Assembly: GCA_009602735.1 (NCBI GenBank)
Contig: WELA01000919.1
Location: 86,330-139,830 of the forward strand
Direction: 5' to 3'
DNA: 53,501 nt
From: Mesotaenium endlicherianum
Taxonomy: Eukaryota
In this document: positions 13,185-42,145 of the stretch, piece after piece
Layout: every line of letters begins with the position of its first letter
How positions within the stretch are numbered: the first letter of the stretch is position 1
Notes under the pieces: model-generated
The model's input: only the letters and a program-made list of their open reading frames with translations
Database searches by the model: none
Told to the model about the DNA's origin: nothing
Made by a program: the position numbers and the translations under genes

Positions 13185-13222
<38 letters not shown>

Positions 13223-16619: not shown

Positions 16620-19600
16620 TTATGCAGGCCATGCAGGAGCAGCAATGTCATCAATGGTTGATTGCCGATTCCCAGAGAGGAGGTTGTAGTTCTGGCCACC
16701 CACAGCAGCCCCGCAGTCAGGGCAACGTGAGGCTTGCCTGGCTAACCCGCAGTTGCCAATGGTGTAAATGTGGCCATTGGGGCACTCGTACCAGTGCCCC
16801 CGTCCGCCCACTAGTCTCACCATTGCCTGCACAACCTGCGCCCGCTCCCCGTGCTCCGCTCGAGTTTTAATCTCCTGCGCCTGGAAGTTGTCCGGCCTAA
16901 CGCGCAGGACCGCGTCGCAGATTTTGACAACGTCAGTGAATCTTTGCTCCCCGAGACGCGGAATCGACTCCGCCATGAGAAGCAGCGCCTCGATCGCCAG
17001 GGCTGCGTCGGCGGGCCCAGAGACGGGGAACACACCAGCTGGCGTCGCGCCCGGGCTGCCGTCCCCCCTCACGAGGGCCTCCAGGCCCGCGGGGATGATA
17101 TCTCTGAGGGGGCTGTTGCGCGCAACGGCGTAGAAATGCCTGAGCCCATCCTGGAAGTGCTCCCGGCCAATGAGAGCACGCCCCAGGCCTTGGTGGGCGG
17201 CCGCGAGGCGGGGGTTGCATTCCAGCGCCTGCCGGAAGCTCCGCTCCGCCAGGCTGGGGTTGCCCTCTGCCAGGAGCTCGTTGCCCCGGTTGACAACAGC
17301 AAAGCCGTTGACGTGGGCCTTCACGGTCTCCAGCCTCCTGATGCACTCCTTGACGACGTTGGAGTAGCGCCCCGTTCTCCTGATGGCTGTCCGGCATGCG
17401 GGGCTGCTCAAGTAAGCGGAGAGGGCACGTGTGACGTTGCACACACAAGGAGTCAGTGGAGGAAGCAGTGAGCTTTCTCTCTCCGCACTACCACGGAGTG
17501 GCACACATGGAGCTGGGGGCATATACACCTTGCATGCTGTAAGTGGAGTGTTGTACAGTCTAGGCTGCCGCTGGCACATGCAAATGTCCTCGCTGAAGAG
17601 TGCTGCTCGGAAAGTGACACATGTCAGGAGAGTATGTTTGACATTGTATGCTTTCATTTTCCATAAGCGGGGCAGCTAGTGCACATACCAATCCTTGAGC
17701 TTGACGGCGATTTTGGCTGCACCGCTGTCCGCTGCAGCATCCGAGGTGCCAGCTGTCTCTGGCATGTCCATCCACTGGTCGAGGCCAGAGACCTCAAACA
17801 AGCCGCAGTCCTCCAGCTGAACAAACCAGTCATCCTCCTCCGCCTCGCCAAGTGTCAGCAGCGAGATGGTGTCGGTTACGTCCGGGTGGCATGTGCGGCA
17901 CTTGGTGGGGCACATTTCCCCACACAGCCCGATGCAAGGGTGGCCGCAGCGCAGGCGCCGCGTGCATGGCGCGTCGCAGCGAGGCCGCGTGCAGGCCTCG
18001 TGGCACAGGCGCTCACATGCAAAGTGTGCGCACCGCCACGCGCACGGCTCTCTGCAGGGCAGGCACGGCTCGTTGCACTTGCGCCGGCACCTGGCATGTG
18101 GGCAGCGGCTTTGGCACTTGCGCCGGCAGGGCGGGCAGAAGCTTGCACACTTCTCCGTGCACTCATGGCCGCAGGGAAGGATGCTCTGGCAGGCCTGCTG
18201 GCACGGCACGTGCTGAGTGCCCTGCTTGCACGCGCCGCACGTGCCCACGCACTCGTGCCCGCAGTCCGCCAACTTCTCCCTGCACAGCACCTGGCAGAGG
18301 AAATCCTCCGGCGCATGAGAGCAGGGCATGAGCGCGCGGTGGCCACACGGCATGGCCTTGTCCACCAGCACGGGGCAGCGCTCTGTGCACGGCTGGAAAC
18401 ACTGCCGGTCGCAGGCGTGACCGCAGGCAAGGACCTTGGCACACTTGGCGGCGCATCGGTGGTCCTCCGGCATAGCCGAGCACGCCATGGTCTGCACGTG
18501 GCCGCACTCGGGCACCGTCTTCTGCACGCGGCGAGCGCACGGCGGGCAGCCCTCCTCCAGCCCGTGGCAGCGCGCGTTGCACAGGTGCTGGCATGCGGGC
18601 AGCTCGCGCTTGCACTCCTTGAAGCAGGCGACGTCATTGTGGCCCCCCGGGTGGCACCGCCTGGGGCACGCGTGGCCGCAGTCCAGCTGGAACTCGCAGG
18701 GCTTGCTGCACCCGCCGTCCTCCACCACCTTGAAGTGGGCGGGTTCCGACACCTCGGTGAGCGTGTCCTTGTGGTTCTGGCAGTGCAGCGTGATGGAGGG
18801 CGCCACGCAGCCCTGCTCCCGCAGCTCCCGCAGGACGCGGCCCCACAGCTGCGGGCTCTTGGCGGCCAGCAGCTGCGCGTTGCCGAGCATGAAGAGCCCC
18901 TTGCGCGCGCGCGAGAGCGCCACGCACACGCGGTTGGCCACACCCAGGAACCCGATCTTGCCGGGACCGTCGTGACTTTCCAGGTTGTTGCTCCTCACCA
19001 GCGACAGGATGATGATGTCGCACTCCTCCCCCTGGTAGTTGTCCACGCTGCTCACGCGCGGCAGCCTCTGCTGCTGCTGCTGCTGCTTATGGAACGTCTC
19101 CTGTCCCCCCGGCTCGTCGCGCGCAAACTTGGCACGGAGGAGGCGCTTTATCTCCAGGAGTTGCCCGGTGTACATGGTGAGGATCACCATTTGGCTGTTC
19201 TCATAGCCCTGCTTGAGGAAGTAGGTGCACAGCTCCACGCAGAGGCGCGCCTCGTGGGCGTTGACCTTGCTGCCCAGCTCGCCGTCGTGGTTCTCCGGCA
19301 CCCTGTGGTCCAGGAAGCACAGGCTGCGCGCGACCCCTCTGACCTCCGGATACGCGCGCACGTCCGCGTGGTTCTGGAGGTGCGGGTAGATGATGGGCGC
19401 CACCAGGCGCGCGATGGCCGGGCGCATGCGGTGCTGCACGCTCAGCGTGGTGCCTTCCACGCCGTTGGCCATCAGGCGCTCGAACATGGACACGTCCAGG
19501 CCGTGCTTCTTGGCGAGCGCGTACACGGCCACCGAGGGGCGCAGCTGCTGGTGGTCGCCGATGAGGATGAGGTGCTGCGTGGCGGGCGTGAGGCACGCCA

Positions 19601-22600
19601 GGATGTGTGACTCCAGCACCTCCGCCGCCTCCTCCACCACGATGATCTCTGGCTGCCGCCTCTCAGAGAGCACGACGCAGGGGGAGGGAGGCCCCCAACG
19701 AGAAGACAGGAGGAATGTTATGTCACATGTGATGCAACGGATAGAGTGAATGATGCACGGAGTTCCTATACAAATTCACAGGCACACAGGCACACTTACA
19801 GGCAGGCGATCACGTGTAAAGTACTCCGTGCTACACATGCAGGACACAAGGGGGCGTGGGCCACGCTCCTCTTACTCTCACACTATGACTTTGTACCTAG
19901 GCATCCAGTTCTGACCCATACCGCCTTTGCTTTGTCTTCATAGAAAAGAGTTTTTCCAATCAAGTGAGGGAATGACCAGGGAGACTGGGAGATGAATGGG
20001 AGGAATATAAACCACTGCAAGACCATCAACATGAATTTAGCAGCTGAGTAGTACCCTGAGTCCGATGAGCAGGTCGTGGTAGCGGGCGGCAGCCGTGGTG
20101 GTCATGCCGACCACGCGGCTCTCCCGCAGGAGGCTCAGTTGGATCTCGTTCTCCACCTCCGCCAACTGGCGCCGCGCTTCGCTATACTCCTTGTCGATGG
20201 CCTTGAGCCGGCCGCTCGCCGTCAAGCGGATCTCCGTGAGCCAGTAGCGGTGCAGCACGGCGCGCGCGCGCTCCGGCAGCGCCCACACGTTGGGCTGGCC
20301 CACCACGTCCTCCAGCTGCACCTCCTCCTGCTCTTGCTCCTCCTCTTCGTTGTCCTCAAACTCTGGCTCCCTGTCCACCACTGGCGCCGCCACCTGTCGC
20401 TTCTGCCGCCCTCGCCGCCGGTTATTCCGAACCTCCTGAAAGCCAGCATTGTCTCCCTCTTCTTCCTCCCGGCCCCCACCTTGTCTTCTCAGAACAGCCT
20501 GGTTCTGCCCCTGTCGCTGCTGCTCCGGGGCACCTTCTTGCGGGGCATCAGCTGTGGCTGGAGCTGGGGCCTGGGGGGCTGGCCAAGGAGGAGGAGGTGG
20601 CGCCAGGAGGGCGTCGTTGAGAGGCCTCTGCAGCAGATGCATCTCCGCTTCAGGCCGCCTGCCCTCTGCCGCTGCCACCTGGCCCTCCTCCCTGTCGGCT
20701 TCCAGATCCCTCACTTCGTCCGCATCTCCCACAGAGCCTTCCACGCCATTGTCGTTATCGTCGCCGTCGTTGTCAGCCACCTCCCTTTCAACCCCCCCCC
20801 GCGCCCCCGCCCCCGCGTGGGCTCCGTTGCCCGCCCGATTGTTCAATGCTTCAAACAAGTTTGCGCGATTGCCCCGCGGCGCGTTGGGCCCCTGCCAGGC
20901 AGGTGCAGCCCGAGCCTTCCCCTGCGCTGCCACCTGGTGCAGGTGGCGATGCGTGTTCAGCCAGGTGTTGACGTACTGCGCCGCGCGTGCCCTGTACGCA
21001 GCAGGTGGGCCGTTGAACGCGTCACCGCAAAAGAGGCTGTCTATCTGGTCCTCTGTTGCGACCCCCTCGAGGGACTCCGGCGTGACGGTCTCCTGGCTCA
21101 GCCGGTCGATGTACCGGACGATCTTGGCCTCGAGCTCCTGCTCCTGGCCTCCCACGCGGCTCTCTGGTGCGCGCGCTCGTTCTCCCTGGCCTCGCGCTGC
21201 TGGAAGAGGAGCTCCTGCAGGTTGTGGCGCTTGAGCGCCTCGCTCTTGCAGCTCCCCCCAATGCGCACGATGCTCTTCTCGTACTCCAGGATGCCCTCCA
21301 GGAACTGGTCCAGCGCGTGGTTGGTGTAGCACACCACCAGGATGGGGCCGGTAGCCGCCCCGCCCCCTGTGCTTCCTCCTCCGCCTCCCACCTCCTCGGC
21401 GTCCAAGTAGTCATCCCCGTGTTGCGCAGCCAGCAGCCCCCGCAGCCGCGTGCCCGAGGCCCTGCTGACGTTGGCGAGGAGCAGCCTCATGGCCAGCAGG
21501 CCCACGAACGTCTTGCCGGTGCCAGGCGGACCCTGAATCAGCGCCAGCTCTTTGGTCAGCACGCGCTTCAGCGCCTCCTTCTGGCTGCGGTCCAGAGTCG
21601 ACGTCCACTCCGGCCACTCCTGCAAGATGCGGACTCTCGACGTGCCCAGGTCCTTGCGTATGTCGGGAAAGACGCACAAGAAGTCGTACTCATTGTGCCC
21701 CACCCTCCTCCTGAGGTAGCAGGGGGGCGCCACCTGGGCTTCCAGGTGGATGAGCTGCTGCTGAAATGGAACCTGCTCCATGTCGGGCCGCTGCAGGCTG
21801 CGGAGCACGTGAGAGTACGCCTCAAAGTAGGAGGCTGTTGACTCCGCCATCACGTACCCCTGATCTGCCCGCAGCCACTTCTTCTTGCCCGCGCCCGCGC
21901 CCGCGCCCACTTCCTCTATCATGCGCACGTCGATGAAGCCCCGGGAGAGGTCCTCGACAGTCCGCTTCGCAACCACGGCAAACTGCACCGACTCAAAGTT
22001 GTCGGGAGAGATGCACAGCAGCGCGCCCAGCATGAGCCGCTTGCTGACCTCCCAGTTGACCCGTTGACCGGAGTCAACGCGGAAGCCCAGGCGGTACTCG
22101 ATGCCGACGCGGCCGCAACGCAGGCCGGCAATGACGACATCCTTATAGACGCGCACGTCCTGGGACCTCTTCTTGCCGCCGCCGCCAAAGGTGTCGCTGC
22201 GGTACTGGCGGATACCCACCTTGAGGGGCTGCATGCAGTCCTCGCGCAGCAGCTGAAAGTGCGTCTCCAGGTACTGCAGCACGCCCTCGTAGGGCACCGC
22301 CGTGTGGTTGTGGGGCAGGTCGCGCGCCTCCACCTGGTGCATCTCGTCCACGGTGGGCACAATGGATTGCACGCGAAATGCTTCGCCCTGTGCCAGCCGA
22401 TGTGGGGGGAGTGCACATGTCAAATACAAGTAGGTTCCCAAACACACTTAGTTGTAGGGGTGCAATGAAAGCCCAACCAGGGCTGGACAGGAAGGTTTGA
22501 GGTACCTCTAATACAAAGCTGTACTCTTTCCACCTTATGACCAGCCAAACAGAATAAGAATGGTTCTGCAATATCAATGCCAGATATGCAGTTATGATGC

Positions 22601-24019
22601 CAAAGGAAGTGACGCCAGAATATGGTGCCAAAATATTAAGACCGATGATGCCAGATGCCAATAAAGGACCAAACAATTTGCAAGCACGCGATTAAAATAT
22701 CTTTCTTGTGCAGCTTTTTTGGAGAAGCGCTCATTACAAAGTAGCAATAAATATTTTTTGTGAACAGAACAGCAGGCAGCAGCAATAGCACAGGCAGCAG
22801 CAGCGACAGCAAGAAGCATGAAGCAGCAGAGTTTAGCGCTGAAGTCAACGGTCAAGCTTTGCAAGGGCATGCAGATGAGTGAGCCAGAGTGAAGAAACGG
22901 CAAGCTCACCACCAGTCCCGGCTGAGGGGGCCCGCGCACTGCGGAGGTGACCCTGAGGCGCGCGCGCTGGTCCATCAGCCGCCGGGTGTCGGCCAGCAGG
23001 GACTGCTTGGGCGCACACTCGTCTGGCAGCTCCTCCACGCGCCCCTTGAGCGCGTCCAGTGGCACCTCCCGCCAGCCGTCGGTGGAGCGCGACTGTATCT
23101 CCTCACACAGCTTGACATACGGCAGCAGCGCGCTGTCGGGCTGCCCCGCGCTGAGGCGGAGACCCTGCACGTGGGCATGTAGGCGCGCCAGGAAGGGCGA
23201 GCCCAGCAGCAGGCCGTACACGCGGTTGGTGCTCTCGCGCAGCATGCTGCTGCGCATCTCGTTGCGCGCCAGCACGCGCACCAGCAGGTCCGCCTGCGGC
23301 TGCGACAGCGCGGGGCGGGAGATGATGTCGCCCAGGAGGGCCAGGCCTCTCGCGTCGCTCAGGGTGGGGATGAGGTCCGCCGCGGAGCTCTCCATTTGCT
23401 TCTGCAGCCAGCTCTCCAAGTTGCGCTCGCTCGTGAAGCCAGGTGGCCTCTCGGGCTGGACAAACGATCGAGAGAGGCCGCCTCGGCCTCCCCCGCCAGG
23501 TGGCATGGTGTGCGAGAGCTTGCATCTGCTTCCAGACCTGCAGCCGTCTCCTCGAAGGAAGAAGCGGCAGACAGGCGTCGCGACTGACGCTGGAGACGGC
23601 TCTCCTGCCGAAGCATCTGCTCCCTGTGGCCCAGTAGCGCCCCCAGTGCTCCCTGCGCCGGCCTTACTTCCTCTGCTTCTCCCAGCGGCAGCATGGCCAA
23701 CTGCCGCTCCTTCTCCTGCTGCGGCTGCTGCGGCTGACAGCTCCACGGTCAGCTTGACCACGTTGCCGGGCGCGCAGGAAGAGAAGGCTAGTTGGAGGGA
23801 GTCATTGGAGTCAATTGTTATCTCGTCATCCGCGTCAGAGTACTTGATGCTCAAGTCAGAGGAGCCTCTGCCGGCAAGCCTGGGGTGGACCCGGGATGCC
23901 ACCTGGCACACCTCGTCGAAGGTGAGCGGCTGGCTCACCGTCGCCATCTTGGTGCTCTCGCCAAAGTGCAGCTTCACGCGCATCAGCTTCTCAGCTGGCG
24001 GGCCTGCCTGAGCCTTCAT
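16620..24019 (-). CDS. ZNFX1: ZNFX1-like protein, copy A: PB1 - CCCH ZnF - helical region - UPF1-like SF1 helicase - NF-X1-type ZnF array - RING-like - TPR - RZ finger. Exons 24019(or 24013)-22910, 22387-20055 (frameshift ~21134), 19652-17689, 17403-16620. Possibly a pseudogene.
   Basis: Helicase motifs LIQGPPGTGKT, VVCYTNHALDQFLE, VVGMTTT, IIVVEEAAEVLE (EEAA as in ZNFX1), LIGDHQQLRP, QHRMRP, VDNYQGEECDIIILSLVRSN, RVCVALSRAR. ZNFX1-type YLETHFQLLREDC and WEVSKRLMLGALLC. CGHxC repeats. FVQLEDCG...LDQWM...KLKDC|PAC. C-terminal GHWYECPNGHIYTIGNCG..CPDCGAAVGG. All introns are GT-AG and phase-consistent. Confidence 0.9.
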
Positions 24020-24021
24020 AT

Positions 24022-24119
24022 CAACGAGCAACACGCAACGAGCAACACGCAACGAGCAGCACGCAACGCGCAGCACGCAACGAGCAACACGCAACGAGCA
24101 ACACGCAACGAGCAACACG
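24022..24119. repeat. 14-bp tandem repeat (caacgagcaacacg) x7
   Basis: Seven near-identical units immediately 5' (on -) of the copy A PB1 exon. Confidence 0.9.
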
Positions 24120-24481
24120 AAGGATAGGATCAGACGGTGGTCAACAATCTTCTGCACGCAGTCTGTATTTGGCCTTGACAAATTTATCGAACTTGCACTT
24201 CCATGGTGGACAGCTCGATCTCGATCTCGACATGGCACGTAGCTACAGCTGACTGGACATCAGAAACATGACATTCAGAAGTCAATGCGGCCTGCAACGG
24301 CAGCCTGTCACTGTCAACTCTTCATTTCACAGAGAAATTGTATCATGCCGGCGGGACCAGCCATCAGGCCTGCAAGAGTCACTCGATTCTGGTGAATGTG
24401 ATCAAATGCCAGCTAGACTAGTACTAGCTTGAAAGAGCGCGACCTGGTCTGACTGATCAAATGCGAAACAAGCAATGTTGA

Positions 24482-25285
24482 CTAGCGGCAGGATGCTGGT
24501 GGGCTGGAGGCCACGTTGCTCACCATGTTTGAGATCTCTGCTCGGTCTCTGTCGCCAAATGAAAGCATATGGGAAGCCATCAGAGGAGGCATGGGACCCG
24601 GCATTGGACCCCTCTTCACATCTTCTCGAGGCAAGAGGCCTGGCGCACTTGGACCAACACCCTCACCTCTTCCAAAAGGAGGATGCCAGCGAGCCTGTTT
24701 GCCATCTTTGGCCCCCTTGCCATTCTTGGCCCCCTGGAAACCCATAGCCCCCTTGCCATTCTTGGCCCATTTGCCATCATTAGCCCCCTTGCCATCCTGA
24801 TGGTGGCCGTTGAACCTTTCAGGCGGCCGCGCTCCTGGGCCCGCAGGAGCTCTTGTGGTCGCATCACATTTCTCGCTATTCTTCCAGATTCGAACTCTGA
24901 TCGCCTCTCCCTCTTCACTGTCCACAAAGGCTGTGCGCTTGCAGTCCAAGAAAAGGTTCGACGGCGCTCCCAATCTCTTCAGCATCTCCACCCGCTTGCC
25001 AACAGGGTGCATGTTACAGCAGTGCACCTTCTCTTTCACTGCCTTCTTTGCTGCCAAGCTGCACTGCCGGCTGGTGGATGCCTGGTCACTTGCGCCTGAC
25101 GAGCTGACAGCCGTCAGCTTTACAATCGGCAGCACGCTGAGGCCAAAGCATTGCACTGCCCTGGTATCAAGGCACACATGCCTCGTATTGGTGCCTTCAT
25201 CCACTATGTGAACATGCTCCCTCAAGGCAATGGTTGTTGAACATTGTCCGCATATGAAGCGAGCAGGAGACTCCCCACCACCCAT
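24482..25285 (-). CDS. RIG-I-like receptor C-terminal domain (RLR-CTD)-like zinc-binding protein; probably exon 1 (25285-24524) of ZNFX1-like copy A
   Basis: FICGQC..VHIVDE..HVCL..QCF..KEKVHCCNMHPVG..FVDSEEGEAIRVRIWKN parallels RIG-I CTD LLCRKC..VRVIEE.HYTVL..ECF..RAKIFC....CSHDWG..VVEDIATGVQTLYSKWKD (alignment by eye, from memory). Phase-0 donor ATG|GTGAGC at 24524/24523. Confidence 0.65.
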   Translation of the reverse strand: MGGGESPARFICGQCSTTIALREHVHIVDEGTNTRHVCLDTRAVQCFGLSVLPIVKLTAVSSSGASDQASTSRQCSLAAKKAVKEKVHCCNMHPVGKRVEMLKRLGAPSNLFLDCKRTAFVDSEEGEAIRVRIWKNSEKCDATTRAPAGPGARPPERFNGHHQDGKGANDGKWAKNGKGAMGFQGAKNGKGAKDGKQARWHPPFGRGEGVGPSAPGLLPREDVKRGPMPGPMPPLMASHMLSFGDRDRAEISNMVSNVASSPPASCR

Positions 25286-28200
25286 TTTGCAAGTCTTACT
25301 TCAAGTTGGACTTGCTGCAATAGTTATCTGCACCCCAACACACCGCATTACACCGCATTGCAGAGCGTTAAACGATCAACACACTAAGAAATGCCTCTGT
25401 AAAATGTAGAAGTATAGGGCTCGAGGGCAACGGAGGAACCGGGGCGAGGGACTTCGAGATGTTGCCCTCCTATGCGGAAGTCAGAACGGGGGGGGTCGGG
25501 TCAGGGTAATATGAGGGTCCAATTAGGGTTGATGACCCCCCCTCTAGGGGTTTGAAATAGTGCTCTGGTTGGTTCCGGGGGATTTTTGCCCCTGGTAGGA
25601 GAAATGGCCCGTTTTTTCGTTCGCCCTCGAAATTGAGACTGAGAAATTTCAATGTCTTTCTAACAGATTCTTCAACTTGTTCCTATGCATTGACATAAGC
25701 TTAATAGACATGCGGGCAATGTAAATATTGCCAACATCCCCCACATTATAGTCAATTGTAGTTACTATAGCAAATATATCGGCAACAGTGATGAGACATA
25801 GGTCACCCTTGGGCGATGCATAATCAACCCGTAAGTTTTGAGCACACCCTGTACATTATACCCGGTGGTAACCACTGTGGCAATTATATAGGCTATAGTT
25901 ATGGAAGAGGTAGGGACACCCTCAGGCAATGCATATATGATATGTCATGATGTTGAGATTCTTCTTGAGATGTGATGCTCTTTGTCCTCAAATATATGCT
26001 ATCATAAACTACAAATGTACAACCGCCTATATAGACTTGGAAGGTTACTGGCCAACAAGGTTTCCTGAAGAGCAATAATTAAGAATGAGGAGTCCAACTC
26101 AGTATGTTCCTACTTAAGCAGCATAACTTTGACAATGTGAAGACTCCACAATCACCAGTCTTTCTCGCGTATACTCACTGGGTTGTGAATCTAGTTATGC
26201 ATCAGAAGAAGGCATGTTGGGCCACCTCATGCAATATGCTTGTCCTTCTTAATTTTTCCTTAGAAGTTGTACTGCCTGCAGGTATGAACCTGTCTCCTGT
26301 CAAACAGGACTTGAGAGTTAAGTACTTCACTTGCGGGGGTGAAAGTCAAGCCTGCAGAAAGCTGGCATTGACTGGAAGTAACCATTAAGCGTTAAACAAA
26401 AATACTGAAATCAAGAAGCAGCTTTCTTCCCATTAAGTTAGTGCAAGAAGCAACATATTTCATAAGAAGGTTGGCCCGGCCGACATTGTCCAACAGTAGC
26501 CAAAACTTTTCTTATACCTCACTGAAATGCACCTTCGAAGCAGAGCTTCAGTTCACGAATGCAAGTCGCTTGGACTCGATCGAGTATCCCTAGTCCAACT
26601 GCCAGCTGCTATGCTCCGATGCCTGGTCCCGTCAAGCTGCATTGATCAATCGTGTATTGGGACTCGATTTTGACTTCCTAAAAATCAATGCCGGACCTTA
26701 AGTTCGTTAGAAGATCTCAGGCAGATCCAAATTGAAGTGGATCAAATATATGCCGACGTGGGCCGGAGTCATTGGTTCGCTTGAAGTACCAACTGATTGT
26801 TGTTGACGTGCATTAGGCGTGCCATAGGCGTGAAATAGGCGTAACGCAGGCGTGAAACTTGCGTGAAGGGGGGCATTTGGGGGGATTGACGTGAAATGGC
26901 TTCCGTTTTCTAAGGTCGATGGGACTTGTTTGAGATTGACCCGCTTGAACCGCAGAAACCTGACAGAAACATGAGAACTTGAGCCACTTTTTCGTGTATA
27001 TCATTATACAGTTGACTGGACAATCAACATCGACGATCAATGAACATCAATGATCTTGAAAAGGGACCGCAAGGTTGACCAAGGACCACCACCTGTCGAC
27101 AACCGCCGAGGCTGACCAAGGTGGACCAAGGCAACTACGTTGAAGGCGACCTAAACCTGATCTGGACTGTCAAATTAAATGTACTTCCTGCGATTGGTTG
27201 CTCGTAGTGCGTCTTGTTCGTGCTACATCCGTACGTGTTACAACGACACCACTGGCTTCGAGACTCAGAAGTTGGGTCTATGCATGCCTGCATGCATGTG
27301 CAAGCCAAACTGATGGGACCAGATATGGGACCAATTATTCTGCCTGCACTTGCTCGGTTAAACACGTAAAGAATATCCTTCAGAAGTCTCAGTATGGAAC
27401 GAGGTATTTCTTTGGAAACCGTGTCTTAACGCATCGAATAATGATGGCCTACGCGTGTAGCTACATATCCATGATGCATTGAAGTCTAATGCAGCCATAC
27501 AATGTTGCCAAGCCCGTGGCCCTAATGATGCGATGGTACTCCACGTTCACGTGCCTGAAACAAAGTTAGCTCCTCAAAAATTTGGACTAGGCCATATATC
27601 TATCGTACTGAGATCGTCAAACTACGGTAATTTGAGCAAGATTGCAGGCTTCATTGTCATATCAGAGCTTCGCGAGTTCAACGGGATTTGTGAGCTCATG
27701 TGCACCAGGTATAGAGCTGTGATTGATCAGCTCGATACATGTCCTTTATCACCAAGTTTGAGCTCATCAAAGAAGCCAAAAGCAGCAACTCTCAGACGGC
27801 TGACTTGATGTCGAAGGTGAGCATTTTCCTCTACCCTGTGTTTTCAGATCAGTTTGAAATAGGAGGTGGATGTATCAAAACGGACGGAGTATGTAAAGGG
27901 TAAATATGTACACATTAGTTTATAAACATAAGTAAGCGCTCGAGAAGGCTAACCAAACGCCATATACACTGTCTTGGCTCGCTGGAAAACACATGACATG
28001 TTGTATTAAGGGCCAGGAGCAGTTGACTTCTCTTACGCAGGCGCTCGTGGCAGCCAGGGAGCTCACTCTTCTCTCGTGTAAACAGATACAAGAATTCCAT
28101 TTGAGTTGAAGAACAAATTTTTCAGGCGTCATTGGATTGTAGGCTTTTCAGTATTTTATCCTGTCCTTTGAGCCCCACTAAATCCCCACATGTGGAGATA

Positions 28201-29303: not shown

Positions 29304-32300
29304 ATGTCAGCAACTTGCGTTTTTGAAGAGGTGAGTTGCATTTGTTGTGGCACCTCTGCGAATTCAATGCACTTTGTACCACACACTTTCTACACACTTT
29401 GTACCACTTAGTGTGACGTATCAGTTGCATTCAAGAGACCCAGGCTAGCTGACTCTCTTGCAGGGACAAAATAAGCACGACTCCAAAGATGCATGGACCA
29501 ACTGATGCATCAAAATATATATTTTCATCAAGATATGTAAAGTGAGATCCAAAGCCTGACAAGAGATCGTCCTGCTTGTTGGTTAGGGTCTCGCAAGCGC
29601 GCACCTCGGGAAGATGCTGCGCATAAAGATACAGTACATTGACACCACAAAGATGACAACAGTCAGGCAACCTCCAACATTTGAGGAGGTGTGCCATGGG
29701 GCATTGAAGATCCACCCAGAGCTAGCCAGCTGGGGCTCCGTGCAGCTCAGGTTTGAGGCTGCCAGTGCAGACCGCGAGCAGATAGCAGTCAACTCCGACG
29801 ATTCTCTGACTTCTGCAGTCGCTGGCTGCGCACCTGGCCAAGTTCTGAAGCTGAAGGTTGACATGCCGGCTCCTGCTGCTCCTGCTCCTAGTACAAGTAG
29901 CCCAGCAAGTGGCACTACATCTACAACATGTCCTTCAGGTGGTGGCAGGAGAGAGGGAACAAGCAGCAAAAATTTGGAAGGAGGCAAACAGCATATTTCA
30001 AGCACAGGGGCAGCCACCAGCAGGCGAGGTCGGCCTGTCTCTTTTGTTCGGCCAAGCAGCGCCCAGGGCACCTTTGATGAGTGAGCACCACATAAAGAAA
30101 TGGCTGCAGAGCAACCTGGAGCGTCCCACATCAGACCTCATATCAAAACTGAGCAAGGGCGAGGGCGCAGCCACTTTGGGCACCATTGTCTCCCGTCCCG
30201 CGCTGTCGCAGCCGCAGGTGGATGTGCTGGTGCGCGTGCTGGCGCGCGACGAGATGCGCAGCAGCATGCTGCGCGAGAGCACCAACTGCGTGTACGGCCT
30301 GCTGCTGGGCTCGCCCTTCCTGGCGCGCCTGCACGCCCACGTGCAAGGCCTCCGCCTCAGCGCGGCCCAGCCCGACTGCACGCTGCTGCCGTACGTCAAG
30401 CTGTGCGAGGAGATCCAGTCGCGCTCCGCTGACGGCTGGCGGGAGGTGCCCCTGGACGCGCTCAAGGGGCGTGTGGAGGAGCTGCCAGATGAGTGTGCTC
30501 CCAAGCAGTCCCTGCTGGCAGACATTGGGCGGCTGGTGGACCAGCGCGCGCGCCTCAGGGTCACCTCTGCTGTGCGTGGGCCCCCTCAGCCGGGACTGGT
30601 GGTGAGCACTCTTGAAGAAGCTGACTCGTATGCATGCTTGCTGCTTCAGTTACGAAGCTGGTCTTGTTGGGAATGTGGTTGCTGCTGCTGTTGCCTGCTT
30701 GCTTACAGGGTGCATGAGCTTCAACAGTGCATGAATGGTTGTAAAAATAAATATGAATACTCTAACAACCCTTTTTTTTACAGCAAAGTTTATTTCTTTC
30801 TTTTTTACGTATAATTTGCTGATCGCAGTTCTACAATGAAAATACAAGTGTGGAGGAAGCAACCAAATTTTTTCTCTATCACCGGCTTCTCTGCTTTCAC
30901 CTCCTCCTACGGATGTGACCACAACAAGGTCTCTACTACTCACACATTAGTTTCACACTGGACACCATCAAGGTAGCTGAGGGAATGATATCTGATGTCA
31001 GGTGACTTGGCACATCTTCTGGGAAATAAGAATATGATCCCCTCTGCTCCTCTCATTGTTGTGCAGGGTGAGGCGTTCCGCACGCAGCCCATAGTCCCAT
31101 CAGTGAAGGAGATGCGTCACGTGGCGGCGGCTGCTGATCTCCCTGTGAACCACACGGCGGTGCCCTACGAGACCATGCTGCAGTACCTGGAGACGCACTT
31201 CCAGCTGCTGCGCGAGGACTGCATGCAGCCCCTCAGGGTGGGCATCCGCCAGTACCGCTGCGATACTGCCAGTAGTGGCTGCAGGAAGAGGTCCCAGGAC
31301 GTGCGGATCTACACGCACATCCGCATGGTCGGCATCCGCTGCGGCAGGGTTGGCCTCGAGTATCTCTTGAAATTCAAGATTGACTCGGGGAGGAAGGTTG
31401 ACTGGGGCGCCAGCAAGCGGCTCATGTCGGGCGCGCTGCTGTGCATCTCTGCCGACAACTTCGAGACAGTGCAGTTTGCCGTGGTTGCCAAGAGGACGGA
31501 CGAGGACCTTGGAAAGGGCCTAGTTGACGTGCGCATGGTTGAGGAGGATGAGGACGAGAGGAAGGGGCTGCACAACGACAAGGTTTACGTGATGGCGGAG
31601 TCGACGGCCGCCTACTTCGAGGCATACTCGCACGTGCTCCGCAGCCTGCAGCGGCCCGACATGGAGCAGATTCCTTTTCAGCAGCAGCTCATCCACCTGC
31701 ACGCCCAGGTGGCGCCCCCCAGCTACCTCAAGAACAGGGGGATACGCGGCGAGTATGACTTCCTGAGCGTCTTCCCAGAAATCCATAAGGACCTGGGGAC
31801 ATCCAGAGTGCACATTTTGGAAGAGGCCTGGCCGGAGTGGACATCCACCCTTGACCCGAGCCAGAAGGCGGCACTCAAGCGCGCGCTGACCAAGGAGCTG
31901 GCGCTCATTCAGGGGCCGCCTGGCACCGGCAAGACGTTTGTGGGCCTGCTGGCAATGAAGCTGCTCCTTGCCAACGTCAGCAGAGCCTCGGGGAGTAAGC
32001 TGCAGGGGCTCCTGGCCAAGACCGCCGGCGAGAAGCGCCCGGACCTGGCCACTGTCGGCTCTGCTGATGTGCTTGCGGAGCACGGCAGGGCGACTACGGG
32101 CCCCATCCTGGTGGTGTGCTACACCAACCACGCGCTGGACCAATTCCTGGAGGGCATTCTGGCGTACGAGAAGAGCGTCGTGCGCATCGGGGGGCGGTGC
32201 AAGAGTGAAGTGCTCAAGAGCCACAACCTCCAGGAGCTCCTCTTCAAGCAGAGGGACAATCGGAGCAGGGAGAGAGCGCACCACTACGCTCTTAGGGAAG

Positions 32301-35300
32301 CGAGGGCAAGGAGCCGGGGGTCGGAGGAGGACGTGATGAAGAACATCCAACGGCTGCGCCATCCAGCCGTCACGCCTGAGACTCTGCAGGGGGTGGCCAC
32401 CGAGGAGCAGATCAGCAGCCTCTTCTACGGAGACGAGGATGTGCTGGAGGGCTCCCCTCTGATAACAAGGGGACATGCGGCCAAGTGTGTGGAGTTCTGG
32501 TTGATTGAGCATCGCTACTTCCGCCACATGGCGGAAGGGAATTCTCGGAGCCTACCTATTCCTCTCGTTCTCCAGCCAGATGCCGGTTGGGGCAATCAGG
32601 ATAGCCGCTTTAATGCTTTGGTAAGGCCACAAGAAGGCTCAGGCAATGGTGGCAGAGCGCGCGCGCGTGTTGAGCGGGACCTTGGTGACAACGACGACGA
32701 CGACGAAGCAGAGTCGCTCGGAGACGAAGAGGAACTGAGGGAGCTCGAGGGAGACAGGCAGGAGGAGGACTTTGCACTCGGCGGCAGAAGGCAGGCTCAG
32801 GCTCGTATGTATCTTCTGCAGGATCCGAAGGTCGACGACGACGTCGAGGAGAACCTTGATCCCCCTCATCCAGCTTGGCAGGCCATGCAACAGGCAGGTC
32901 AGCAGCACCAGCAGTGGCAGCAGGGTCAACACCACCACCAGCAGCAGCAGCAGCATCAGGCTGCTATGAGAAGGCAAGGGGGTGGAGAGGGGTACAACGA
33001 CGGCTTCCAGGTGGTGCAACACGGCAGAGGAAGGGGGCGGCAGCAACAGGTAGCGGTGCCTGGAGCAGACGGCCCTGGCAATCTGGCTATGGGCTTCGAG
33101 GAGGAGGAGGAGGTGGACAAGGAGAGGGAGGAGGGGGAGGTGGCACTGGGGAAAGTGGTCGACCAGCCTAACGTGTGGGATCTGTCGGAGCATGAGCGCG
33201 TCACGCTGCACAACTACTGGCTGGGGGAGATCCGCGCAGCTGCGGGCAACAAGCTCCCCGAGATTGCCAAGGACTACTGCAAGGCCCAGCGCCAGGTGGC
33301 AGCCGTCGACAACAAGATCCAGCTGAGCCTCCTGCGGGAGAGCCGCGTTGTCGGCATGACCACCACGGCCGCCGCCCGCCACCACGACCTGCTCACCGCC
33401 CTCAAGGTGCTCTTGCATTCTCTCGCCTTTGGGCACTTGCATGCTTCTCGTACCTTCCCAATTTTCCAAAGATTGCGTGAAAGTACCTCCCCAACTCTCC
33501 AGTGATTCTTGCTTGAATGAGAGTTTGATTGTAGTCAACTTTCACTTTTGTATGTCTTGGGCCTAATCCTCCGTGACCCCCCTCACCACGACGGTGTATT
33601 GCATGTCCAAAAGATTCTGATGGCAGGAGTAATTTCCCATGTGTCCAACCAGCACTTGTACGTGCATGGAGTCAAATGCTTGTGGAGCATGGCAGCACAT
33701 AGATTACTCTGCATCTTTTTGTATGGCTCCTCTTTCATGCTTGAACCACATCATCTGCAGTCTGCTTATAATATTCTCTCCATACACAAATTCTATTGCA
33801 AAGCTTCTTCAATATTTGTCAGCCAAAACACATTATGTTGGCATTGGATGCTTCCACAAAGTCATTCCCTGCATGTGGTGTATGAGAAATTTTACGTGCG
33901 AGTGTGTATGTCTGCATGAATGTAATCTACATGTGAGAATCTGTTCCTACATAGATTAGTAGGTCTCTTTGTGCTTCTTTGCATCATATGACAGTTGGCC
34001 TGTCCTCCCATTGGGGCCTCCCTCCCCCTGCGCCGTGCTCTCTGAGAGGGGGCAGCCAGAGATCATAGTGGTGGAGGAGGCTGCGGAGGTGCTGGAGTCG
34101 CACATCCTGGCGTGCCTCACGCCCGCCGCGCAGCACCTCATCCTCATCGGCGACCACCAGCAGCTGCGCCCCTCGGTGGCCGTGTACGCGCTCGCCAAGA
34201 AGCACGGCCTGGACGTGTCCATGTTTGAGCGCCTGATGGCCAATGGCGTGGAGGGCACCACGCTAAGCGTGCAGCACCGCATGCGCCCGGCCATCGCGCG
34301 CCTGGTGGCGCCCATCATCTACCCACACCTCCAGAACCACACGGACGTGCGCGCGTATCCGGAGGTCAGAGGGGTCGCGCGCAGCCTGTGCTTCCTGGAC
34401 CACAGGGTGCCGGAGAACCACGACGGCGAGCTGGGCAGCAAGGTCAACGGCCACGAGGCACGCCTCTGCGTGGAGCTGTGCGCCTACTTCCTCAAGCAGG
34501 GCTACAGGCATGACCAGGTGGTCATCCTCACCATGTACACCGGTCAGCTCCTGGAGATTAAGCGCCTCCTGCGCACCAGGCTCACGATGCCTTATCTGCC
34601 ACATGTCAGCAGCGTGGACAACTACCAGGGAGAGGAGTGCGACATCGTCATCCTGTCGCTCGTCAGAAGCAATCACCTGGAAAGTCACAACGGGCCCGGG
34701 AAGATCGGATTCCTGGCGGTGGCCAACCGCGTGTGCGTGGCGCTCTCGCGCGCGCGCATGGGGCTCTTCATGCTCGGCAACGCGCAGCTGCTGGCCGCCA
34801 AGAGCCCGCAGCTGTGGGGCCGCGTCCTCCGGGAGCTGCGGGAGCAGGGCTGCGTGGCGCCCTCCATCACGCTGCGCTGCCAGAACCACGAGGACGCACT
34901 CACCGAGGTGTCGGAGCCCGCACACTTCCATGCGGTCAAGGAGGGTGGATGTGGCAAGCCGTGTGACTGCCAGCTGAACTGCGGACACCTGTGCCCCAGG
35001 AGATGCCACCTGGGGGGCCACGATGACGTGACCTGCCCAAGAGACTGCAAACGCGAGCTTCCCGGATGTGAGCATCAGTGCAGCTCACGCTGCCACGGGC
35101 TGGAAGAGGCCTGCCCGCCGTGCGCGCGCCGTGTGCAGAAGATGGTTCCCTCCTGCGGCCACGCTCAGACCATGGCGTGCTCGGCAAGGCCGGAGATCCA
35201 CCTGTGCCTTGGCAGTTGCGCCAAGGTGCTCGCCTGCGGGCACGCCTGCGACAAGATGTGCTACCAGCCGTGCAGTGAGCGGTGCATTGTGCTTGTTGAC

Positions 35301-37608
35301 AAGGTGATGCCATGTGGCCACGACACGCGCGTGCGTTGCTTCCAGAAGCAGGAGGAGCTCAAATGCAACGTCCAGGTTGAGAAGACGTTGTCGTGTGGCC
35401 ACAGCACGCGCGTGCGCTGCTCACAGAAGTTGGAGGCGGTTGAATGCCATGTCCAGGTTGAGAAGAAGCTGCCATGTGGCCATGAAGCAGGCATGCCCTG
35501 CCCACAGAAGCTGGAGGATTACGTGTGCCAGGTGGCGGTGGACATACCGATGCCATGCGGCCACACTGAAGAAGTGCCTTGCTTCCGCAGAGAGGAGGCG
35601 CTTTCGTGCCGTGCCCTTGTGGACAGGGTCGCGCCATGTGGCCACGGTGCCACCATGCCCTGCTCTGAGAAGCTGGAGGACTTTGTATGCCGCGCTCCCG
35701 TGGACAAGAAGCTGCCGTGTGGGCCTGGCCATTCTGCGCGCATGCCTTGCTTCCTGAGCGCGTCGGAGTTTGTATGCCGTACTCGAGTGGACAAGGTGCT
35801 GCCTTGCGGCCACTGTGCCCGCGTGCGTTGCTTCCAGACATTGGAGGGTTTTGAATGCCACATGAAAATCGACAAGGAGATGCCATGCGGCCACCACGCG
35901 CGCATGCCCTGCAACCAAGAGCCGGAGGAGGTTGAGTGCCAGGTGCCGTGCAGGGAGAGGCTGACGCAGTGCGGGCACGAGTGCGTTGGCACGTGCAGCG
36001 CTTGCAAGCGGGGGACTCAGCACGTGTCGTGTCAGCGGGCCTGCCGGAGCATCCTGCCCTGCGGCGACGCATGCGTGGAAAAGTGTGCCAGCTTCTGCCC
36101 GCCCTGCTGGCGCAGGTGCCAGAGCCGCTGCCGGCATGCCAGGTGCCGGCGCAAGTGCGGCGAGCCGTGCCTGCCCTGCAGGGAGCCGTGTGCGTGGCGC
36201 TGCGTTCACTTCTCGTGCGAGCACCTCTGCCACGAGGTCTGCACGCGGCCGCGCTGCAACGCACCGTGCACGCAACGCCTGCGCTGCGGCCACCCCTGCA
36301 TCGGGCTGTGCGGGGAGGCGTGTCCTACCAAGTGCCACACGTGCAACCCGCATCTCTCAGCTGCAAAAGGCGACACAAAGGTGGCTATTGGGGCGGACCG
36401 CGAGATGCGTTGCATACAGCTGGAGGATTGCGGCCACTTGTTTGAAGTGGCAACTTTGGACCGCTGGATGGACGCACAGAATACCTGCAGCCCTTTGGAT
36501 GTTGCCTCAGACGCGGAGCATGATGCCACCACCAGAGGCGGTCTGAGGCCGCCAGCTGTTCCAGTCAAGCTCAAGGAGTGGTATGTACGCACTCGTTAGC
36601 ACCTGGCCCACTGGCTGATTCTCGGAGCACTCCTAGTTGCAGTAAGGCTAGCCTTAGGGCTAGGGCATCTTACTCACCGCATGACATTGGAGCACGCATA
36701 CTGACGGTCCAGATTGTTGGCTGCGTGTCTACCACCACGCTGGCATGCACCAAACTTCACTCTAGATGTAGTTAGGTGGTCAGTGCCCACGCCAGGTATG
36801 CATCCAGATCTGCACGGTCCGTTCAGCACCTGGTGTTTGAGATTACCCACCACAGGCCCCCAGCCCTGCTCTGACATGTGGCTTCTTTCTGGCTGCCACA
36901 CTTACCTGCGCAGTGCGCGTTGCGCGACCCCTCTCTCGCTTTGTTGTCTTTGCTGTGCATGACGTGCGCAGCCCCGAGTGCGGGACTCCCATCAGGAGGA
37001 CCACTGGGCGCTACTCCAACATAGTGAAAGAGCGCCTCGGGAGGCTCGAGGCCGTGAAGCGTCAGATCGTTGGATACGATGCCGTCAATAAAGGGAATCT
37101 GCTGCTGACCGGCAGTCACCCCAAGTTTGCCGAGCAGAAGTTCCGGCAGGCCCTCCACTGCAACCCCCGCCTGCCCGGCGCCCACCACGGCCTGGGGTTG
37201 GCTCTGCTCGCGCAGCAGTATTGCCAGAGTGCGCTGAAGCATTTCTACGCTGTTGCGCGCAGCAGCCCTCTCAGAGACGTCATCCCTGGGGGCCTCGAGG
37301 CCATTGTGAGGGGGGATGGCCGCGCTGGCTTGTTGCCAGCTGGCAATCTCCCCGTCTCGGGGCCTGCCGACTCGGCCTTGCAAATTGAAGCGCTGCTTCT
37401 CATGGCCGAGACGATTCCGCGCGTCAGAGCCCAAGCTTATCTTGATGTCATTCAGATCTGTGACACCGTTCTGAGTATTGAGCCCGAAAACGCCGCGGCC
37501 AAGGAGATGAAGAAGCAGGCACAAATTCACTTTTTCCCACTTTCTGCGAGCCATCGAGCACAAGTGGTGAACAGGACAATGAGAGAAGTGGGCAAAAAGG
37601 GCCAGTGA
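29304..37608 (+). CDS. ZNFX1: ZNFX1-like protein, copy B: PB1 - helical region - SF1 helicase - expanded NF-X1-type ZnF array - RING-like - TPR, truncated before the RZ finger. Exons 29304-29330 (tentative), 29587-30601 (frame disruption ~30050-30080), 31067-33406, 34056-36580, 36972-37608
   Basis: Same helicase motifs and same intron positions as copy A (GLV|GEAF, LK|PEII, KEC|PEC). CIQLEDCGHLFEVATLDRWM. TPR-like VNKGNLLL..AEQKFRQALHCNPRLPGAHHGLG. Stop TGA at 37606-37608. Confidence 0.88.
35283..35936 (+). repeat. Eight tandem ~81-bp coding repeats (27-aa C-x3-V-D/E-K-x-x-P-C-G-H-x5-C zinc-finger unit)
   Basis: CIVLVDKVMPCGHDTRVRC, CNVQVEKTLSCGHSTRVRC, CHVQVEKKLPCGHEAGMPC ... CHMKIDKEMPCGHHARMPC in the 33969..36599 ORF. 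Confidence 0.9.
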
Positions 37609-37701
37609 TATGAGTGCCTCCAAGGCCATGTGTTTGCTGCTGGAGAGGGTGGCGGGGCCCTGGATGTTTTAAAATGCCCCAATTGTACAGCTGAAAGCTG
37701 A
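37609..37701 (+). pseudogene. Degenerate RZ-finger remnant downstream of the copy B stop
   Basis: In frame after TGA: YECLQGHVFAAGEGGGALDVLKCPNCTAES*, aligning with copy A YECPNGHIYTIGNCGLARQASRCPDCGAAV. Confidence 0.85.
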
Positions 37702-38153
37702 AGCGGGTGTGATCGAGAGTATTATGACAATTGAAGATCATTCGCTAATGACTGTACCATTGCTAGTATATACATCGACTGTAAGTATGCTGAGAGCTTG
37801 CAAGGAAAAAAACCAGCTATAGACCAGTGACATACACGCACTTAAATGTACAGTCGAATGAGGAGCAAGGTTTGAACAGCACATTGTTGGTCCCATCCAG
37901 TCTACCTATATAGTGATACATCAATGGTTTTTTCATGTGTCACATCAATCATTGCACAAGAAAATGGTTCCACGACAATCCCAATGTCCCACAGTGCTGG
38001 TTTCTCCTTAACAATCAGCCTTCCATGGCAACATGTTCAATGACTCATAATTCATCGCATCCAAAAGGGCCTCCTGCTACTTCTATGGAGTTTATTTCCT
38101 GAAATGACTGTCTAGTAGCAAGTAGCGTTATTCTTTCAACCAGCGCAGCGTCA

Positions 38154-41940: not shown

Positions 41941-42145
41941 GCCACCAGCGACCATAAAGTTGTAGAAGCAACCTTACAGAGAAAGTTTCTCCCAGGGTGA
42001 GCATTTCTGCGGGATCATGGGGCATCATCCCCAAGTTTGACCCAGGCTTGTCATCGACTGATTATATCTCACGCTCTTAACCACGTTTTAATCTACATCT
42101 TGGACTAACTCAGCTTCTCTGGTCATCACCAAGGAGCTCCCCGGG

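Follow-up and report, generated by a model that had tools for sequence, protein, structure and literature searches.

Two divergent ZNFX1 paralogues and their domains

The window, a stretch of 53,501 nucleotides from Mesotaenium endlicherianum, contains two divergent ZNFX1 paralogues, A on the minus strand and B on the plus strand. Inverted paralogy extends across every coding exon with a nucleotide identity of 68-85%, and the three introns common to both genes lie in the same alignment columns with phases 0, 0, and 2. The original prediction of divergent paralogues with identical intron positions some 4-5 kb apart was thus borne out, the spacing being 4.3 kb from ATG 25285 to ATG 29614. The profile search suggested with it found Pfam matches to ZNFX1, AAA_11, AAA_12, and PB1 in both genes, to CCCH in A alone, and to RZ in A, with an RZ fragment downstream of a stop in B. 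In 24000-29700, we found neither a long inverted repeat nor a transposon end accounting for the inversion. Splice joints were taken from X5, a set of RNA-derived contigs from a separate study that show presence only, and from X24, a raw RNA run of which 13% was read; X1 is a DNA run, the kind of X9 (DNA or RNA) is not on record, and X21, with 13 reads of which 12 were partial, is uninformative. The features are as follows.

26179..26232, minus strand: 5′ untranslated exon of A; joint 25327/26179, GT-AG, in X5, with 54 letters on the short side; the exon is at least 54 nt long
24524..25327, minus strand: A exon 0, coding from ATG 25285, 254 aa, phase 0 onward; X5 contig 24523-25327 and joints
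24860..25264, minus strand: extra N-terminal domain of A, a possible beta-tent zinc fold (At4g08330/Yippee-Mis18/RIG-I CTD clan), as a lead only
22910..24013, minus strand: A exon 1, with PB1 at ~23732-23983 (Pfam 1.7e-9) and a CCCH finger at 23510-23575 (zf-CCCH_4 3.9e-5); joints in X5 and X24
20055..22387, minus strand: A exon 2, with the 1B/ZNFX1 domain (Pfam ZNFX1 2.9e-26), Walker A (AAA_11), and the 1C insertion; harbors the frameshift; joints
21098..21134, minus strand: lesion of A, with 7 nt deleted at 21133/21134 by comparison with paralogue C and a premature stop at 21100-21098 (codon 1052)
17689..19652, minus strand: A exon 3, with Walker B (EEAA), RecA2, a 300-aa zinc-finger stalk, and most of Miz (AAA_12 1.2e-39); out of frame in the mRNA
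19446..19700, minus strand, in A, and ~34010-34262 in B: likely gene-conversion tract, including an intron 3′ end
16620..17403, minus strand: A exon 4, with the TPR region and the RZ finger (Pfam RZ 3.1e-23, TPR); out of frame; joint 17403/17689 in X5 and X24
29587..30601, plus strand: B exon 1, with PB1 from ATG 29614 (Pfam 1.9e-6), an eroded acidic motif, and the helical domain; acceptor placed by homology
31067..33406, plus strand: B exon 2, with the 1B/ZNFX1 domain (Pfam ZNFX1 1.5e-28), Walker A, and the 1C insertion; open frame; P0002 match
34056..36580, plus strand: B exon 3, with Walker B, RecA2, the expanded stalk, and Miz with an altered E2-binding loop
36972..37701, plus strand: B exon 4, with Gly at the Miz linchpin position, the TPR region, and a damaged RZ, from alignments

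The two genes are asymmetric, as had been proposed, in their CCCH finger, their stalks, and their differing RZ and Miz lesions. Gene A has the expected CCCH finger and PB1; compared with a third paralogue, C, its OPCA motif lacks one residue. The PB1 of B has an eroded OPCA and is followed by no CCCH match in Pfam, both in agreement with the original prediction. The helical domain in A exon 1 may correspond to the ZNFX1 armadillo domain, at whose position a conserved 160-aa region lies; Pfam gave no ARM match there, and the human-chain alignment shown starts behind it. The 1C insertion and an acidic stretch are present, with a gappy plug-helix alignment. The Cys-rich NFX1-type stalk has 55 Cys in 300 aa in both A and C, with one unit of the 27-29 aa type read from the sequence of A. 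In B, the predicted expansion is evident as eight such units (35283-35936) in a 492-aa segment containing 79 Cys. The array of A, on the other hand, is not short as claimed, since 299-301 aa was the length in all four land-plant relatives measured. Its PB1, CCCH finger, and stalk length are ancestral, being shared by liverwort and fern relatives.

The product of A exon 0 consists of a Cys/His-bearing domain and a low-complexity linker, and is joined in frame to the PB1 exon (joint 24012/24523, GT-AG, X5; phase 0). The exon had been described as RLR-CTD-like; it is real and spliced in frame, but the RLR identity is only a lead. PF11648 (RIG-I-like CTD) did not match the domain at E values up to 0.1 or up to 10, and searches of the Pfam beta-tent clan, PDB sequences, and metagenome and viral contigs gave no match. 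It matched none of the 262 proteins retrieved. A tblastn search with exon 0 found no second copy within the window and none near B, and 1.84 billion representatives yielded a single match, an unrelated-looking tandem repeat protein. A single-sequence AlphaFold model was unusable (pLDDT 32). The Atlas leads all belonged to the beta-tent clan but were weakly recognized, the top match being an At4g08330-type cluster (0.92; 198/256 features shared; recognition 2190, under the 2300 mark) and the RIG-I_C-RD cluster scoring 0.83. The papers listed by a literature search included nothing on the function of At4g08330. We regard A as carrying a spliced-in extra N-terminal domain, for which the beta-tent identity is a lead only.

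Lesions in A and B and the intact paralogue C

The frame disruptions, a caveat of the original prediction, are real in both copies, as they recur in contigs of the sequencing runs. Because the frameshift of A precedes Walker B, which is present in the DNA but out of frame, the A mRNA loses Walker B, RecA2, the stalk, and both E3 modules. Each of these modules lacks one conserved His even at the DNA level: the codon for the Miz zinc His is absent at 17801/17802, and the RZ finger, which has its four zinc ligands and the predicted catalytic Cys, carries Tyr at the catalytic His position. The frameshift in the mRNA and the two missing His residues do not support A as the active partner.

In B, a frameshift near 30070 leads to a stop at 30082-30084, with an ATG in the next frame at 30077, and the same sequence was found in an X1 contig (25570-30253) and an X9 piece (29604-30278) with 0 differences. 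Its RZ finger is dead, as had been proposed: TGA (37606-37608) replaces the RZ Trp, the catalytic Cys is Gly, and a second stop (37699-37701) truncates the frame ahead of the catalytic His position, all within an X1 contig (36281-37749) with 0 differences. From these changes, B is predicted to be ligase-dead, with its PB1 detached by the frameshift. The helicase and stalk frame is open with intact helicase motifs, and the gene model, P0002, has 1,948 codons. That it stayed open while the RZ finger gathered several lesions fits poorly with decay of the cluster, and suggests that B long served some use in the absence of RZ.

We considered whether the lesions might be assembly errors in two intact genes. 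A near-identical paralogue makes misassembly plausible in principle, and the assembly of the window may itself derive from the best DNA run. However, an RNA-derived X5 contig from a separate study (20813-21170) bridges the A deletion without a gap, and the B frameshift recurs in X1 and X9 and the B stop in X1 with 0 differences, making this explanation extremely improbable.

The third paralogue, C (P0001), was missing from the original account. It is intact, is known here as a protein, and by its source name lies on the same scaffold as A and B. It matches A at 94% in exon 3, 53/76 in RZ, and 59/83 in PB1. The indels at 17801, 21133, and 21369 all (3/3) match differences between P0001 and A at about half the X1 depth. 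At the A deletion, the 7-nt-longer form has a depth of 70.1 of 121.9 in X1, and at 17801 the 3-nt-longer form reaches 43.7 of 112.8 in X1 and 22.2 of 35.3 in X9 and is absent from X5. Since the longer forms have about half the X1 depth, both versions are present in one DNA run. The possibility that P0001 is merely a gene model of A was rejected on this ground and on the differences found throughout. A search with the N-terminal region of P0001 returned just P0001 and P0002 despite existing plant PB1/CCCH relatives, and was thus insensitive.

The SF1 helicase with a 1B domain, Walker A, and an EEAA Walker B is present in B and C, whereas the Walker B of A is out of frame. Only C has a complete Miz domain, with its zinc His and linchpin position, and a complete RZ finger, with the catalytic Cys/His and all four zinc ligands; neither A nor B retains this set. 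The Miz His is missing from A, and in B, Gly occupies the linchpin position and the E2-binding loop is altered. The best solved-structure match of C was human ZNFX1 (9q9z_A, E 1e-185), ahead of Upf1/NAM7 (2e-28). Compared with the core, the RZ finger of A has diverged much more strongly from that of C, but all its zinc ligands are kept; this resembles diversification more than plain decay.

Selection, transcription, and the fate of the cluster

A tree from a quick search (25 rows) gave the topology (B,(A,C)) with SH-aLRT values of 100 and 99, as sister to 11 land-plant rows. Cryptomeria has its own local ZNFX1 duplicates, which arose independently of those of the alga in this tree. The dN/dS between A and B was 0.38 overall and 0.17-0.64 by domain, with ~0.2-0.4 for the helicase and stalk of B, and the repeat units of B showed pN 0.32 below pS 0.54. 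B is thus supported as an old, ligase-dead, long-stalk variant with a core held under purifying selection, and the locus is more than a neutral inverted duplicate. The synonymous identity between A and B was patchy (block chi-square p 1.4e-5). In the tract listed above, 31 consecutive four-fold sites are identical (permutation p 0.0022) and ~45 nt of the intron end are near-identical, while the remaining two intron ends differ; A likely shares 19446..19700 with B by gene conversion.

X5 shows splicing of all five introns of A, and X24 of three of them; in X24, exon 3 of A had a depth of ~2-7 against 0-0.9 for exon 3 of B. B was almost absent from the X5 contigs as well. No spliced B joint was found among the splice joints listed, and X9 covers both genes, introns included. 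The RNA check thus confirmed the transcription and splicing of A, but A/B co-occurrence was not seen in X24, the one informative raw RNA run. With transcripts of A and dN/dS below 1, the signs named in the original prediction for a decaying inverted duplication are not all present.

The transcripts also raise the possibility that the truncated A product (1,051 aa: extra domain, PB1, CCCH, helical domain, 1B, and half of RecA1) is maintained as an adaptor or a dominant-negative regulator of C. The splicing in X5 and X24, the open and in-frame extra exon, and the loss of 0/129 conserved columns upstream of the break agree with this. A stop far upstream of a junction is the usual signature of nonsense-mediated decay, and that of A lies ~1 kb ahead of the following junction; past the break the reading frame is still open apart from the shift, which makes the break a recent one. 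Moreover, the contrast with the 8/339 columns lost downstream is not significant (p 0.11), nor is that between the 8 conserved sites lost downstream in A and the 2 in C (p 0.11), so neither comparison gives significant evidence that selection on A relaxed past the frameshift, a result that also counts against the decay of A. We consider a maintained A product very unlikely.

The head-to-head linkage of a paired locus is found here, with 4.3 kb between the start codons, but not two working partners of which one is signaling-competent, as A is truncated at codon 1052 and B is predicted to be ligase-dead with a detached PB1. Since an intact C exists, the A/B locus is not a dedicated two-gene unit, and the proposed two-component RNA-sensing/ubiquitin pair for the most part did not stand. 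A and B are two of three ZNFX1 paralogues, both with real lesions, and rather probably belong to a birth-and-death cluster whose working RNA-activated helicase/ubiquitin ligase would be the intact C. A local inverted duplication may have given B and the A/C ancestor. In B, the CCCH finger and the two E3 activities would then have disappeared and the stalk grown longer, with selection still acting on the core; the other copy, A/C, would have duplicated again, gene conversion would have homogenized patches, and A would have broken recently. By homology to human ZNFX1, C would bind RNA in its SF1 groove, hydrolyze ATP, oligomerize, and ubiquitylate via Miz and RZ, with PB1 possibly adding polymerization and CCCH RNA binding.

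Alternatively, B may be a functional ligase-dead partner, started at ATG 30077 or restored in frame by a small intron, that co-polymerizes as a sensor, spacer, or brake with a ligase-active copy, today C and formerly perhaps A, the layout being a relic pair. Its intact helicase motifs and stalk (dN/dS 0.17-0.32), the repeat units with pN 0.32 below pS 0.54, and the specific alteration of both E3 modules are in line with this. A model of one Cryptomeria duplicate also stops before RZ, but this may be a gene-model error. The predicted PB1(A)-PB1(B) complex scored 0.36, graded as weak support, against 0.02 for the best control, where the score mark was reached by 51/78 solved and 2/108 mismatched pairs and scores of ≤0.60 are more often wrong than right; three runs agreed in 100% of contacts, and the partner pLDDT was at least 74. 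PB1-PB1 complexes are textbook knowledge, and the prediction may stem from likeness. Furthermore, the frameshift in the DNA cuts off the PB1 of B, the 35 GT-AG pairs that could restore the frame are an unspecific option, no spliced B joint is among those listed, and B is essentially absent from X24. As precedents, a preprint describes trans-ubiquitylation of inactive copies by human ZNFX1 and a C. elegans ZNFX1 without RZ (10.1101/2025.10.14.682297). On balance, such a partner role for B is unlikely.

Land-plant relatives and known systems

The sister clade to A, B, and C includes ZNFX1-like proteins of Riccia (P0122), Calypogeia (P0008), Selaginella (P0009), Adiantum (P0011), Ceratopteris (P0014), Ginkgo (P0012), and Cryptomeria (P0016/P0017). 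The TPR region, RZ, and a 300-aa stalk are general among these relatives. PB1 and CCCH occur together, as in A, in Adiantum, P0233, and Riccia (the Riccia PB1 being under the Pfam cutoff), and CCCH occurs in Calypogeia, whereas the gymnosperm models checked showed no PB1 or CCCH match. The branch with the PB1, CCCH, and TPR additions spans a zygnematophyte-type alga, liverworts, a lycophyte, ferns, and gymnosperms. No flowering plant or moss was named among the matches listed, at most 120 per list, a weak result, as one search missed the known members P0014 and P0015. Among the papers listed, title and abstract searches showed none on plant or algal ZNFX1, though the original ZNFX-1 and RZ-finger papers and supplements may hold plant trees, and a PB1/CCCH/TPR-bearing streptophyte subfamily, not found in print, is a candidate. 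If real, this branch would provide a candidate for an RNA-sensing or small-RNA pathway of early-diverging plants that can be put to the test. In a broader reading, nonflowering streptophyte ZNFX1 with PB1, CCCH, and TPR would be an RNA-sensing ubiquitin ligase that split in the alga into two forms, one ligase-active and able to bear a fused RIG-I-CTD-like RNA-sensing domain, the other ligase-dead with a long stalk, which co-polymerize as a two-component RNA sensor, with RZ-less duplicates recurring independently in a conifer; we regard this as quite doubtful.

The human genome has a single ZNFX1 gene, against three in the alga, two of them with lesions. Human ZNFX1 (9q9z_A) and the algal genes share the order of 1B, Walker A, a deviant EEAA Walker B, a long 1C, the stalk, Miz, and RZ, and the RZ zinc ligands and catalytic Cys/His of C map one-to-one onto those of the human protein. 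Unlike the latter, the plant branch begins with PB1 and CCCH and has a TPR region ahead of RZ, and A adds a further N-terminal domain. In animals, ZNFX1 has lately been shown to link RNA binding with sequestration driven by ubiquitin. Of two preprints on human ZNFX1 (10.1101/2025.10.14.682297, 10.1101/2025.09.05.674436), the former describes dimerization via the armadillo domain, polymerization, and ubiquitylation of inactive copies in trans. The RZ-less C. elegans ZNFX1 described there would be a precedent for a copy such as B; it is, however, thought to retain its Miz activity, and B carries Gly in place of the linchpin. The small-RNA amplification factors C. elegans ZNFX-1 and S. pombe Hrr1 belong to the same family as the algal genes, Hrr1 acting together with an RdRP (PMC9276528). 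An immune role of algal ZNFX1 is a candidate, and a role in RNAi would be equally open.

The A-B pair itself matters less than this branch; in its sequenced state it is a damaged cluster, of value chiefly as a natural record of the modules (CCCH, RZ, Miz, and stalk length) that can be shed or expanded. The paired plant NLRs RRS1/RPS4 and RGA4/RGA5 are head-to-head and asymmetric, with an extra fused domain on one copy. A and B differ from them in their scaffold, in that neither neighbor is a complete enzyme, in the presence of a third copy, in that co-expression was not seen, and in that the extra domain belongs to the gene whose RZ still has the catalytic Cys; what they have in common with the NLR pairs is the head-to-head layout, the asymmetry, and the extra domain fused to one copy.

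The inverted ZNFX1 pair and its third paralogue

The two long genes of the locus, A on the minus strand and B on the plus strand, are inverted paralogues whose coding exons all align at 68 to 85% identity in a blastn comparison within the window. Their three introns occupy identical alignment columns and phases, and their start codons are 4.3 kb apart, consistent with the divergent layout, at about 4-5 kb, of the original prediction. Pfam searches found the ZNFX1 domain, AAA_11, AAA_12, and PB1 in both genes, CCCH in A only, and the RZ finger in A, with just an RZ fragment, downstream of a stop, in B, again as had been described. Given the paralogy, domains, common introns, and start-codon spacing, the anatomy first read from the DNA was largely right. 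Pfam also identified the following flanking genes, of which the DENN-domain, TATA-binding, and inositol polyphosphate 5-phosphatase-like ones look like housekeeping or signalling types:

about 5855-14900, plus strand, DENN-domain protein
38154-39968, minus strand, GCK-domain (twin CX9C-like) protein whose N-terminal part is long and acidic
about 42100-45200, plus strand, TATA-binding protein
about 48500-52500, minus strand, inositol polyphosphate 5-phosphatase-like protein

The acidic part of the GCK-domain gene contains a 188-nt direct duplication (39112-39293 / 39301-39488, 88%).

Using exon 3 of A as a homologue query, we retrieved two protein models, with the source names jgi/Mesen1 ME000680S09085 and ME000680S09086, Mesen1 denoting the zygnematophyte alga Mesotaenium endlicherianum. 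Model P0002 corresponds to B, with 100% identity over exons 1 and 4 and 99.9% over exon 3; part of exon 2 is missing from the model. Model P0001 is not A, since it agrees with A at 94% in exon 3, 59/83 in PB1, and 53/76 in RZ. The DNA run X1 shows indels at 17801, 21133, and 21369, each at about half of the summed depth and each coinciding with a difference between P0001 and A. The genome thus carries a third paralogue, C, which by its name lies on one scaffold with A/B. A tree from a quick search, whose 25 rows comprise the three paralogues, 11 land-plant sequences, and 11 hand-picked animal ones, recovered their order of splitting as (B,(A,C)), with supports of 100 and 99, and placed A/B/C as sister to the land plants. 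Runs X13-X16 contain roughly one fifth of the words of A, as would be expected if just the 94%-alike C were present.

Transcription and lesions of the two copies

Gene A is transcribed. Run X5 (kind not on record) has five GT-AG joints in A, three of them crossed by reads of the raw RNA run X24, and X5-X8 contain 0.79-0.81 of the query words, matching the query's exon fraction of 0.796. The junction from exon 0, A's extra 5' coding exon, to the PB1 exon is in frame, and the spliced frame ends at codon 1052, cut short by the deletion of 7 nt that are present in C. Both forms of this site occur in X1 (the longer being 70.1 of 121.9 depth), and an X5 contig spans it in the deleted form. The truncated product would, judging from the sequence, retain Walker A and be without Walker B, RecA2, the stalk (the zinc-finger array), and both E3 modules. 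Residues named in 10.1101/2025.10.14.682297 were mapped via a mammalian orthologue whose C-terminus follows the human numbering; A is missing the Miz zinc His, and its RZ finger retains the catalytic Cys, as predicted, whereas the general-base His is replaced by Tyr. Conserved sites were lost at 0/129 positions before the break versus 8/339 behind it (p 0.11, not significant). This non-significant loss, together with an RZ that has diverged from C yet kept its zinc ligands, speaks against simple decay. The likeliest reading of A is a copy that broke recently.

In B, a frameshift near 30070 detaches PB1 from the remainder, and RZ is destroyed by a TGA at 37606-37608, a Cys-to-Gly change, and a second stop. 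Both sites are spanned by X1 contigs with no differences, and X9 spans the first; with an X5 contig also bridging the lesion in A, the frame disruptions noted earlier as a caveat are real in both copies. The Miz linchpin position is Gly in B versus Arg in A, C, Adiantum, and Ginkgo, and B's E2-binding loop is also altered. The frame is open from the ATG at 30077, a candidate start, through 37605, and a putative 121-nt intron (29939-30059), 1 of 35 such GT-AG options, could mend the frame. The A-B dN/dS, averaged over both branches and conversion tracts, is 0.38 for the genes as a whole and falls to 0.17-0.32 within the helicase core and the stalk, which, as judged from these ratios, shows long constraint on B's core.

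Over the 13% of X24 that was read, the depth on exon 3 was 0-0.9 in B versus about 2-7 in A. In X5, three exon-3 bins of B had a depth of 0-0.94, and the fourth bin, onto which contigs of a paralogue can fall, had 5.6. X9 has depth on B plus introns, with none over 26421-28421, and no spliced B joint is among the joints listed, with 28 further ones outside that listing. One X9 contig matched 29604-30278, with 515 more letters elsewhere, and X9 depth was also present in 28422-29755; the signal upstream of 29604 to about 28400 may come from a further 5' exon of B or from spliced antisense RNA. Another X9 contig (1602 nt, at a depth of about 498) lies over 37164-37749, overlapping the last exon of B, and extends past the compared stretch. 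The GCK-domain gene next door, on the minus strand, may end here and overlap B in antisense; similar depth at 37164-37749 was not seen in X5 or X24.

B is predicted to be an old ligase-dead variant. It is unlikely to be still a partner of C, and otherwise it would be decaying as well. A predicted complex between the PB1 domains of A and B scored 0.36 versus 0.02 for the best control, with runs agreeing in 100% of contacts and a partner pLDDT of at least 74, at a mark that 51/78 solved and 2/108 mismatched pairs reach and where predictions are wrong more often than right; it lends weak support and may stem from likeness to solved PB1 complexes.

Ancestral and derived features

PB1 and CCCH occur together in Adiantum P0011, in P0233, and in Riccia P0122 (its PB1 under the cut-off), CCCH occurs in Calypogeia, TPR and RZ are general among plant rows, and stalk length is 299-301 aa for A, for C, and for 4/4 land-plant proteins measured. 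Since these features are common to plant relatives, A has the ancestral arrangement with one exon added. The derived form is B, with CCCH gone, the acidic PB1 motif eroded, and the stalk grown to 492 aa by 27-aa units. The expanded array ascribed to B therefore stands, whereas the "short" one of A is of ancestral length.

The 145-aa exon-0 domain has no relative among 262 fetched proteins nor, bar one repeat-protein match, among 1.84 billion representatives. Its original reading as putatively RLR-CTD-like is a lead at most: Pfam did not match the RIG-I CTD, and the Atlas favours streptophyte At4g08330-type beta-tent clusters, which rank top (0.92 and 0.89). Another streptophyte cluster, with the automatic name 'C-terminal domain of RIG-I', scores 0.89, and a RIG-I_C-RD cluster scores 0.83; the recognition scores lie under the reliable mark. 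A zinc domain of the beta-tent type is a reasonable candidate, and RIG-I-type RNA sensing would be hypothetical.

Gene conversion between A and B is likely. Their four-fold-site identity is patchy (p 1.4e-5, ten blocks), and around Walker B 31 such sites in a row are identical (permutation p 0.0022). One intron end is common to A and B; the other two are not. Seven 14-nt tandem units lie at 24022-24119, just 5' of the acceptor site for the PB1 exon of A, and the first intron of A contains a short high-copy element at 25470-25620, where the X1 depth is about 225 versus about 60 around.

Several plant proteins are already named 'NFX1-type zinc finger-containing protein 1' in databases. No plant or algal ZNFX1 paper was among the matches listed in literature searches that covered mostly non-subscription papers, in their main text; the word 'plant' had 0 occurrences in the accessible parts of ZNFX1 papers including PMC11959080, and those of 10.1101/2022.12.12.520048 and PMC10298304 mention ZNFX1 once each. 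Angiosperm or moss names were absent from the best 120 of 334 and the best 120 of 4213 matches, many of them nameless, and the 334-match search overlooked known family members. Cryptomeria japonica has two nearby ZNFX1 copies, SUGI_0306400 and SUGI_0306460 (P0016/P0249 and P0017), six locus tags apart on one chromosome-size contig, the second model stopping before RZ. This independent parallel could be genuine or due to a faulty gene model. A further pair of paralogues consists of P0015 and P0082.

Proposed function of the paralogues

The locus is a real, asymmetric, head-to-head ZNFX1 duplication and, as sequenced, no working two-gene sensor-executor unit; the two-component system originally proposed is not supported, with A cut at codon 1052 and B having a detached PB1 and a destroyed RZ. 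C would be the complete enzyme of the three, and among solved structures human ZNFX1 is its best match (E 1e-185). According to 10.1101/2025.09.05.674436, the human protein, which binds RNA via its helicase and relies on Cys1860 of the RZ finger, traps RNA in oligomers linked by ubiquitin; by analogy, C would do this in the same way. A small-RNA role, such as that described for Hrr1 and ZNFX-1 in PMC9276528, would be just as possible for C.
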